In this document: positions 26,056 through 27,836 of the stretch, one piece after another
Numbering within the stretch: the stretch's first letter is position 1
Layout: each line of letters starts with the position of its first letter
Assembly (NCBI RefSeq): GCF_056746865.1
Contig: NZ_CM163382.1
Length of the DNA: 64,000 bases
Direction: 5' to 3' (one strand)
Notes under the pieces: model-generated
What the model was told of the DNA's origin: nothing
What the model saw: only the letters and a program-made list of their open reading frames with translations
Databases searched by the model: none
Translations under genes and position numbers: made by a program

Positions 26056-26173
26056 ATGTGATGAGCCGTTCATGATACAGGAGTAGTAAAGGGCATATTT
26101 TACCAATGTTAAGGCGACTTTCCGTTTTATTGCGAGTCGCCTTTCCTGATTATAAATCTTATTGTTTACCTAA

Positions 26174-27368
26174 GGAAGGTGCGAACAAGTCCCTGATATG
26201 AGATCATGTTTGTCATCTGGAGCCATGGAACAGGGTTCATCATGAGTCATCAACTTACCTTCGCCGACAGTGAATTCAGCAGTAAGCGCCGTCAGACCAG
26301 AAAAGAGATTTTCTTGTCCCGCATGGAGCAGATTCTGCCATGGCAAAACATGGTGGAAGTCATCGAGCCGTTTTACCCCAAGGCTGGTAATGGCCGGCGA
26401 CCTTATCCGCTGGAAACCATGCTACGCATTCACTGCATGCAGCATTGGTACAACCTGAGCGATGGCGCGATGGAAGATGCTCTGTACGAAATCGCCTCCA
26501 TGCGTCTGTTTGCCCGGTTATCCCTGGATAGCGCCTTGCCTGACCGCACCACCATCATGAATTTCCGCCACCTGCTGGAGCAGCATCAACTGGCCCGCCA
26601 ATTGTTCAAGACCATCAATCGCTGGCTGGCCGAAGCAGGCGTCATGATGACTCAAGGCACCTTGGTCGATGCCACCATCATTGAGGCACCCAGCTCGACC
26701 AAGAACAAAGAGCAGCAACGCGATCCGGAGATGCATCAGACCAAGAAAGGCAATCAGTGGCACTTTGGCATGAAGGCCCACATTGGTGTCGATGCCAAGA
26801 GTGGCCTGACCCACAGCCTGGTCACCACCGCGGCCAACGAGCATGACCTCAATCAGCTGGGTAATCTGCTGCATGGAGAGGAGCAATTTGTCTCAGCCGA
26901 TGCCGGCTACCAAGGGGCGCCACAGCGCGAGGAGCTGGCCGAGGTGGATGTGGACTGGCTGATCGCCGAGCGCCCCGGCAAGGTAAGAACCTTGAAACAG
27001 CATCCACGCAAGAACAAAACGGCCATCAACATCGAATCCATGAAAGCCAGCATCCGGGCCAAGGTGGAGCACCCATTTCGCATCATCAAGCGACAGTTCG
27101 GCTTCGTGAAAGCCAGATACAAGGGGTTGCTGAAAAACGATAACCAACTGGCGATGTTATTCACGCTGGCCAACCTGTTTCGGGCGGACCAAATGATACG
27201 TCAGTGGGAGAGATCTCACTAAAAACTGGGGATAACGCCTTAAATGGCGAAGAAACGGTCTAAATAGGCTGATTCAAGGCATTTACGGGAGAAAAAATCG
27301 GCTCAAACATGAAGAAATGAAATGACTGAGTCAGCCGAGAAGAATTTCCCCGCTTATTCGCACCTTCC
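26174..27368 (+). mobile_element. IS5 insertion sequence (1195 bp) with 4-bp target duplication CTAA
   Basis: Termini GGAAGGTGCGAACAAG.. / ..CTTATTCGCACCTTCC are inverted repeats; CTAA at 26170-26173 and 27369-27372; encodes InsH. Confidence 0.9.
26242..27222 (+). CDS. insH: IS5 transposase InsH
   Basis: 326 aa from ATG at 26242 ([12 protein letters not shown]..); DDE transposase of the IS5 family. Confidence 0.9.
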
Positions 27369-27836
27369 CTAATCATTTTCCTTTGCATAATGCGCCTGGG
27401 ATTAATGGCGGGTGCTTTTAGGAATGAAAGAAAATGCAAGCAATAATATAATAATGGCCTAATTTCTTTGAACATCATTAAGCATATCATCATCGTCTAT
27501 TTGCCAGAATCCGTCGACTTATAATCGCCAGAACGGCATATCAGGACGGTGCTGCGAACGCTGTGGCCCAAAACGTTCCAGTAAACTGTGTAGATGTTCG
27601 TAGATTTCCGAGCCATAATCGAAAAGGCGCGGATGTCTATTAAGGCATCCGGCTAATCTGTAAGCAATAACAACGGTTTATGCGGTGCGCGTTTTTCACC
27701 CTTGTGCCAGATTATTATATTGGCAATTGCCTGCTGTTCGAGCCCGCAAGTGAAGAGATATTACCTTGATCTCATTTGTTTTTTGTTGTCTACTCTGAGA
27801 ACGAACAAGGACATCCCCCATGAATAAACTCCCCGC

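Follow-up and report, generated by a model that had tools for sequence, protein, structure and literature searches.

Genes and features at the yjhR-nanS locus

In the window, by which we mean the whole 64-kb stretch of DNA that was analysed, a complete copy of IS5 lies in the spacer between the yjhR pseudogene and nanS, and the gene coordinates (Table 1) agree with the initial annotation in placing it between a yjhR remnant and nanS. On the left, and on the same strand as IS5, yjhR retains an intact open reading frame at 25039–26055, whose stop codon ends 118 bp before the element. Its product matches the Pfam domains AAA_12 and PLDc_2, and also positions 812–1135 of the 1136-position PADLOC profile MkoC (E = 3.8e-139); given that this match covers the C-terminal 30% of the model, we regard yjhR as the remnant of a defence gene. 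On the right, the frameshifted endonuclease fragment gives a weak match to the PADLOC model mREase_IV (E = 0.0055), so that with the yjhR remnant on one side and this fragment on the other, IS5 sits between two decayed defence-type genes. The spacer between these decayed genes is a permissive one, having also received IS1 in another strain, VG12A2, where the endonuclease fragment contains an IS1A and the truncated yjhR remnant is bordered on its left by an IS3.

Between the yjhR stop codon and IS5 there is a stable hairpin, evaluated by its minimum free energy and by its z score against shuffled sequences, whose function as a terminator is uncertain because no T-run follows it. Disruption of a terminator by IS5 was considered and rejected, given that the insertion leaves the hairpin intact and that the sole terminator-like call lies inside IS5 on the minus strand. 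No RNA gene was found anywhere in the window with Rfam at gathering thresholds, and the K-12 annotation has no RNA in the yjhR-nanS spacer.

Farther to the right, the small-protein gene ythB overlaps the 3′ end of nanS, and its tagged product has been seen by immunoblot in K-12 (10.1101/511675). The nanS gene belongs to the operon published in the order nanCMS (PMC3658417), which together with the coordinates places the promoter beyond position 30724, in the nanC-fimB spacer. Even for K-12, RefSeq/PGAP treats nanS as a pseudogene and calls it incomplete (“sialate O-acetylesterase, missing C-terminus”), and the curated K-12 record gives the same 326-aa nanS ORF as a functional esterase. In FDAARGOS_497, which also carries the IS5, an IS2 additionally splits nanM (L002 10009–12451).

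Table 1. Coordinates of the features discussed, as positions in the window
Feature	Position	Strand	Basis or remark
IS21-family element, 2637 bp	1734–4370		Flanked by the 7-bp direct repeat CAGTCAC
istB-like gene	1833–2831	-	
istA-like gene	2605–4251	-	
mtnK-like 5-methylthioribose kinase	5157–6416		
MTR-1-P isomerase	6426–7541		
Class II aldolase	7572–8213		
GRP/RhaT-like sugar transporter	8317–9321		
yjhR pseudogene, C-terminal remnant of a Mokosh MkoC-type helicase/PLD defence protein	24815–26055	+	PGAP in 118UI, matching coordinates
Stable hairpin 3′ of the yjhR stop codon	26111–26143	+	-15.7 kcal/mol, z = -3.9; ends 30 bp before the IS5 left end
Left target-site duplication CTAA, 4 bp	26170–26173		Single CTAA in K-12, NC_000913.3 4536146–4536149
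IS5, complete, 1195 bp	26174–27368	+	Lies between the CTAA copies; PGAP: IS5 transposase in carrier genomes
Left terminal inverted repeat GGAAGGTGCGAACAAG	26174–26189	+	Pattern search
insH (ins5A) transposase gene, 326 aa plus stop	26242–27222	+	Protein identical to WP_000019400.1, accession via annotation of identical copies
3′-terminal 177 bp of IS5 (“IB” region: A-tract bend plus IHF site)	27192–27368	+	Faces right, toward ythB and the nanS 3′ end
Right terminal inverted repeat GGAAGGTGCGAATAAG	27353–27368	-	Pattern search
Right target-site duplication CTAA	27369–27372		Sequence comparison with the empty site
Frameshifted N-terminal restriction endonuclease fragment (phosphorothioate-DNA-binding/type IV)	27522–27727	-	PGAP, six-frame translation
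ythB small-protein gene, overlapping the nanS 3′ end	27820–27918	+	K-12 b4802 mapped; 451 bp from the IS5 3′ end
nanS, sialate O-acetylesterase, last gene of nanCMS	27837–28817	-	SASA domain; K-12 annotation
nanM	28882–29988	-	K-12 annotation, 118UI PGAP
nanC	30008–30724	-	K-12 annotation, 118UI PGAP

The IS5 copy and its relatives

The interval 26170–27372 that had been singled out comprises IS5 plus both target duplications. An intact IS5 of 1195 bp, with a 326-aa InsH and flanking CTAA copies, had been proposed there, and the element boundaries, the profile matches of the transposase and the empty site described below all confirm it. The terminal repeats are indeed present at both ends; they are not identical to each other as had been implied, but imperfect, with 15 of their 16 positions matching, and their pattern occurs only twice in the window, at the left and right ends of the element, against a chance expectation of 0.06. 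The insH open reading frame contains neither stops nor frameshifts, and an alternative upstream ATG at 26206 would extend the protein to 338 aa. InsH matches the NCBIfam model NF033581 (IS5 family transposase) over its whole length (1–285 of 285; 365 bits against a cutoff of 140), and also the Pfam domains DDE_Tnp_1 (5–200 of 200) and DUF772. IS5 has been described as an element of 1195 bp with 16-bp imperfect repeats and a 4-bp duplication of the consensus C(A/T)A(G/A) (PMC11677980), and every defining feature that could be tested was found in the window copy, namely, the length, the ends, a CTAA duplication that fits the consensus, a DDE transposase and near-identity to the reference.

The closest reference is IS5A of K-12 (insH1, NC_000913.3 273955–275149), which resembles the window copy in its length of 1195 bp, its 16-bp imperfect ends and its gene layout, 1191 of the 1195 bases being identical (99.67%) over the full length without indels. 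The two differ in genomic location, the K-12 site here being empty, and at four bases, by substitutions at IS positions 54, 368, 865, and 889; no difference lies past position 889, and therefore the 3′ 306 bp, including the IB/IHF region whose function has been characterised (PMC2753651), are the same in both. A second K-12 copy, IS5H (insH6, cobU/yoeG locus), shares G54 and A889 (K274) with the window copy and has a 4-bp duplication of its own, CTAG; it differs from the window copy in retaining Y266 and in three additional substitutions of its own, and it has been reported as essentially non-transposing in K-12 (PMC11677980). ISKpn26 is of the same family and length, with a transposase 98% identical and K274 in both, whereas its nucleotide identity to the window copy is only about 91–95% (5–9% divergent) and it has Y266. 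From these sequences, the window copy is assigned to IS5 proper and not to ISKpn26.

The insertion site and its frequency

When the two flanks are rejoined with a single CTAA, 600 of 600 bases match K-12 MG1655 in one piece, and at least 1645 complete genomes of E. coli have the same empty site; for these two reasons, we take the CTAA copies as a true duplication and not a chance tetranucleotide. Comparison with genomes lacking the insertion was the check proposed in the initial annotation, and K-12 and these genomes provide it. Among 5426 genomes, the left junction of the insertion is present in 84 and the right junction in 85, always in the same orientation, and no IS5 in the opposite orientation was found at this site in any of the 5426. 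The insertion is thus a presence/absence polymorphism, and it is also the sole indel between window positions 9264–64000 and the collinear K-12 segment 4519240–4572777, these being 99.95–99.99% identical.

The DNA that flanks IS5 is AT-rich (32–41% GC), and IS5 is known to favour AT-rich intergenic DNA (PMC11677980), with CTAA among its listed targets (PMC5493358). Six-frame translation of the spacer led us to reject a target inside a decayed gene, given that over 80 bp separate CTAA from the recognisable restriction-endonuclease homology on its right, and for that reason we treat the target as non-coding. PGAP annotates the insertion in all the carriers examined, and dozens of public genomes already have it in their annotation. 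We found no literature on it, the sole co-mention of “IS5” and “yjhR” being irrelevant (IS5376 in a gene list).

We conclude that a complete IS5, a member of the IS5 family with a DDE transposase, transposed into CTAA and duplicated this tetranucleotide, in non-coding, AT-rich DNA where the yjhR pseudogene and nanS converge with their 3′ ends. Very probably, the locus as a whole is best explained as an ordinary IS5 that was inserted once, belongs to a mobile variant, has been spread by recombination and is probably a neutral polymorphism.

The wider window

A tract of about 62 kb (yjhU-sgc-yjh-nan-fim-uxu-yji-mcrBC-hsdS), beginning at window position 9264, is 99.95–99.99% identical to K-12, as compared with only about 98.1% for nearby core genes of the host lineage, judged from strain 118UI. 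The divergence from K-12 climbs sharply inside hsdS/hsdM, the continuation of the tract to about K-12 position 4581250 being seen in 118UI, and in a second carrier, ABW_A32, the shared tract ends at a breakpoint in uxuB, near window position 45014. From its identity profile, this K-12-like tract looks like a recombinational exchange of the leuX-fim region. In fimF, at window position 39411, the window has A where K-12, 118UI, and ABW_A32 have T, and this base appears to be private to the window's genome.

Positions 1–9263 are not K-12-like; K-12 has fecIRABCDE and IS1F there, and the breakpoint at 9264 coincides exactly with the right end of IS1F in K-12. This left part contains the methylthioribose, aldolase, and sugar transporter genes of Table 1. 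The junction of the transporter with yjhU is a common arrangement found in 1238 genomes, and it was therefore rejected as a lineage marker because it does not discriminate. The IS21-family element sits in a prophage-like region with RadC/JAB and toxin–antitoxin remnants, and it is missing from the otherwise near-identical 118UI.

The S266/K274 variant and its mobility

Two of the four substitutions alter InsH relative to K-12 InsH1, namely Y266S (codon 266 being window positions 27037–27039) and R274K. K274 is also the state of ISKpn26 and IS5H, and Y266 is conserved in K-12 IS5A, K-12 IS5H, and ISKpn26, which leaves S266 as the one unusual residue of the protein. It lies 10 residues before E276 of the R-x3-E-x6-K signature, E276 being presumed to be catalytic from the general DDE motif. 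Considering this proximity and the conservation of Y266 elsewhere, it is possible that the variant has a reduced activity, and the fact that in many carrier genomes the yjhR-nanS copy is the sole chromosomal IS5 also fits a low activity.

These same observations could be taken further, to a window copy that is an immobile relic, its transposase disabled by Y266S, with movement in trans or recombination accounting for the variant elsewhere. A published result points the same way, given that K-12 IS5H, whose InsH differs from that of IS5A at R274K only, gave no new insertions among 60 (PMC11677980; the change is printed there as R74K, and our alignment gives R274K). However, K274 is the state of ISKpn26 too, and the distribution of the variant argues against a crippled transposase. 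The 91-nt stretch that spans both non-synonymous changes has exact matches in 310 records, at many chromosomal positions and also on plasmids, and in carriers with 16–19 IS5 places (for example, WP7-S17-ESBL-01 and NMBU-W13E19) the best exact match to it lies away from the yjhR-nanS site. More directly, 118UI has a second 1195-bp copy, 100% identical, that interrupts an aldo/keto reductase gene and is flanked by a fresh TTAG duplication of its own. We therefore consider the relic unlikely. Because of this identical copy with its own duplication elsewhere in 118UI, the S266/K274 variant appears, from its sequence and distribution, to be naturally mobile, and we infer that the window's own copy would be active as well.

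Possible effects on the plus strand and ythB

The intact 3′ IB end of the element faces right, and for this reason ythB is the only gene that stands in the geometry known for activation by IS5. An effect on the plus-strand unit to the right, that is, on ythB and/or on transcription antisense to the nanS 3′ end, could be exerted in two ways, either because IS5 would cut ythB off from an upstream promoter, or because its bent, IHF-binding 3′ end would act on a downstream promoter. This end is identical to that of K-12 IS5, ythB starts 451 bp downstream on the same strand, its tagged product being detectable in K-12, and a sigma-70-like motif, ATGAAA-17-TATAAT (10 of 12 consensus positions), lies at 27424–27452, 55 bp past the IS5 end. 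Nevertheless, promoter-like motifs in the region are not enriched, with 5 found against 2.9 ± 1.7 expected from shuffled sequences, and manual inspection of positions 27353–27392 showed no fusion promoter at the junction, there being no -35/-10 pair with a workable spacing. A scan for a fusion promoter at the right junction, of the type described for fucAO (PMC11894529), gave none either, and this candidate was rejected. We thus hold such a plus-strand effect to be quite improbable. A stronger proposal, in which IS5 would influence plus-strand transcription, both that entering ythB and that running antisense to nanS at its 3′ end, and in which the allele would owe its presence in at least two divergent backgrounds to selection and not to hitchhiking on a recombining fim-region haplotype, is to be viewed with great doubt.

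A probable single insertion spread by recombination

Divergence between lineages was measured directly on core genes, and the comparison in depth covered two carrier backgrounds of the 84–85 carriers. The window and 118UI have 2 mismatches over window positions 4371–50000, and between 118UI and K-12 the identity is only 98.06% across the tsr-arcA core genes, as against 99.96–99.99% from K-12 position 4519240 to about 4581250, inside hsdS/hsdM. ABW_A32 is of a different background, with its tsr-arcA core 97.7% identical to 118UI and 97.8% to K-12. Around IS5, by contrast, about 39,000 bases contain 2 differences between it and the window, and 7 SNPs by which the window departs from K-12 are present in ABW_A32 too. 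Beginning at window position 45014, 32 differences from the window fall within 1.4 kb, which places a recombination breakpoint in uxuB. A base-by-base comparison of two carriers, FDAARGOS_497 and 118UI, showed that their IS5 copies at the yjhR-nanS site are identical to that of the window. The sequence types of the carriers are not stated in the papers found for the strains queried.

The single orientation, the identity of the IS5 copies and a common haplotype in divergent backgrounds together lead us to one insertion spread by recombination, and a single origin is most likely. Homologous recombination would then have transferred IS5 from one divergent E. coli lineage to another, together with a near-identical stretch of at least 39 kb, the yjh-sgc-nan-fim haplotype. 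The alternative is that the site is an IS5 hotspot and that the 84–85 carriers represent several independent insertions, in keeping with CTAA in AT-rich DNA being a preferred IS5 target (PMC5493358; PMC11677980) and with a divergence of about 2.3% between the core genes of carriers with different chromosomal backgrounds. Independent events at a hotspot are nevertheless very unlikely, given that all carriers have one orientation and none the opposite, that the copies of FDAARGOS_497 and 118UI are identical to the window's, and that ABW_A32, although divergent from 118UI in its core, shares the flanking haplotype, non-K-12 SNPs included, up to its sharp uxuB breakpoint.

No predicted effect on nanCMS

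The initial annotation had placed IS5 about 470 bp from the nanS start and suggested that it could influence the expression of nanS-nanM-nanC. The distance holds, being 468 bp, but it is measured to the nanS stop codon; given that nanS is on the minus strand, IS5 lies beyond its 3′ end and not near its start. The operon is transcribed toward IS5, and 3356 bp separate the element from the nanC start codon, so that the suggested influence is left without support by an insertion downstream of the operon, with the promoter side more than 3.3 kb away.

At glpFK, flhDC, and fucAO, activation by IS5 has been documented to require that the element precede the promoter it acts on and that its 3′ end of 177 bp adjoin that promoter (PMC2753651). 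The activating IS5 at glpFK, flhDC, fucAO, and bglGFB is the same element as ours, with an intact IB and a CTAA target in AT-rich intergenic DNA; those insertions, however, are upstream of a promoter with the 3′ end proximal, and the window IS5 is instead downstream of nanCMS, its intact IB end facing the nanS 3′ end and not the nanC promoter. [quoted passage not shown] No known mechanism predicts an effect of this IS5 on nan expression, and because no gene is interrupted and the position is downstream of nanCMS, the insertion is most likely selectively neutral in this respect.

Significance of the insertion

IS5 is a textbook element, and the finding, although real, is an ordinary one that matters little. 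Given the position of IS5 downstream of the operon, there is no good reason to follow up nan expression, and if any cis effect exists, ythB is the gene exposed to it. The insertion is, on the other hand, a handy marker for the yjh-nan-fim haplotype, which spans at least 39 kb and is shared by two or more divergent backgrounds of E. coli.
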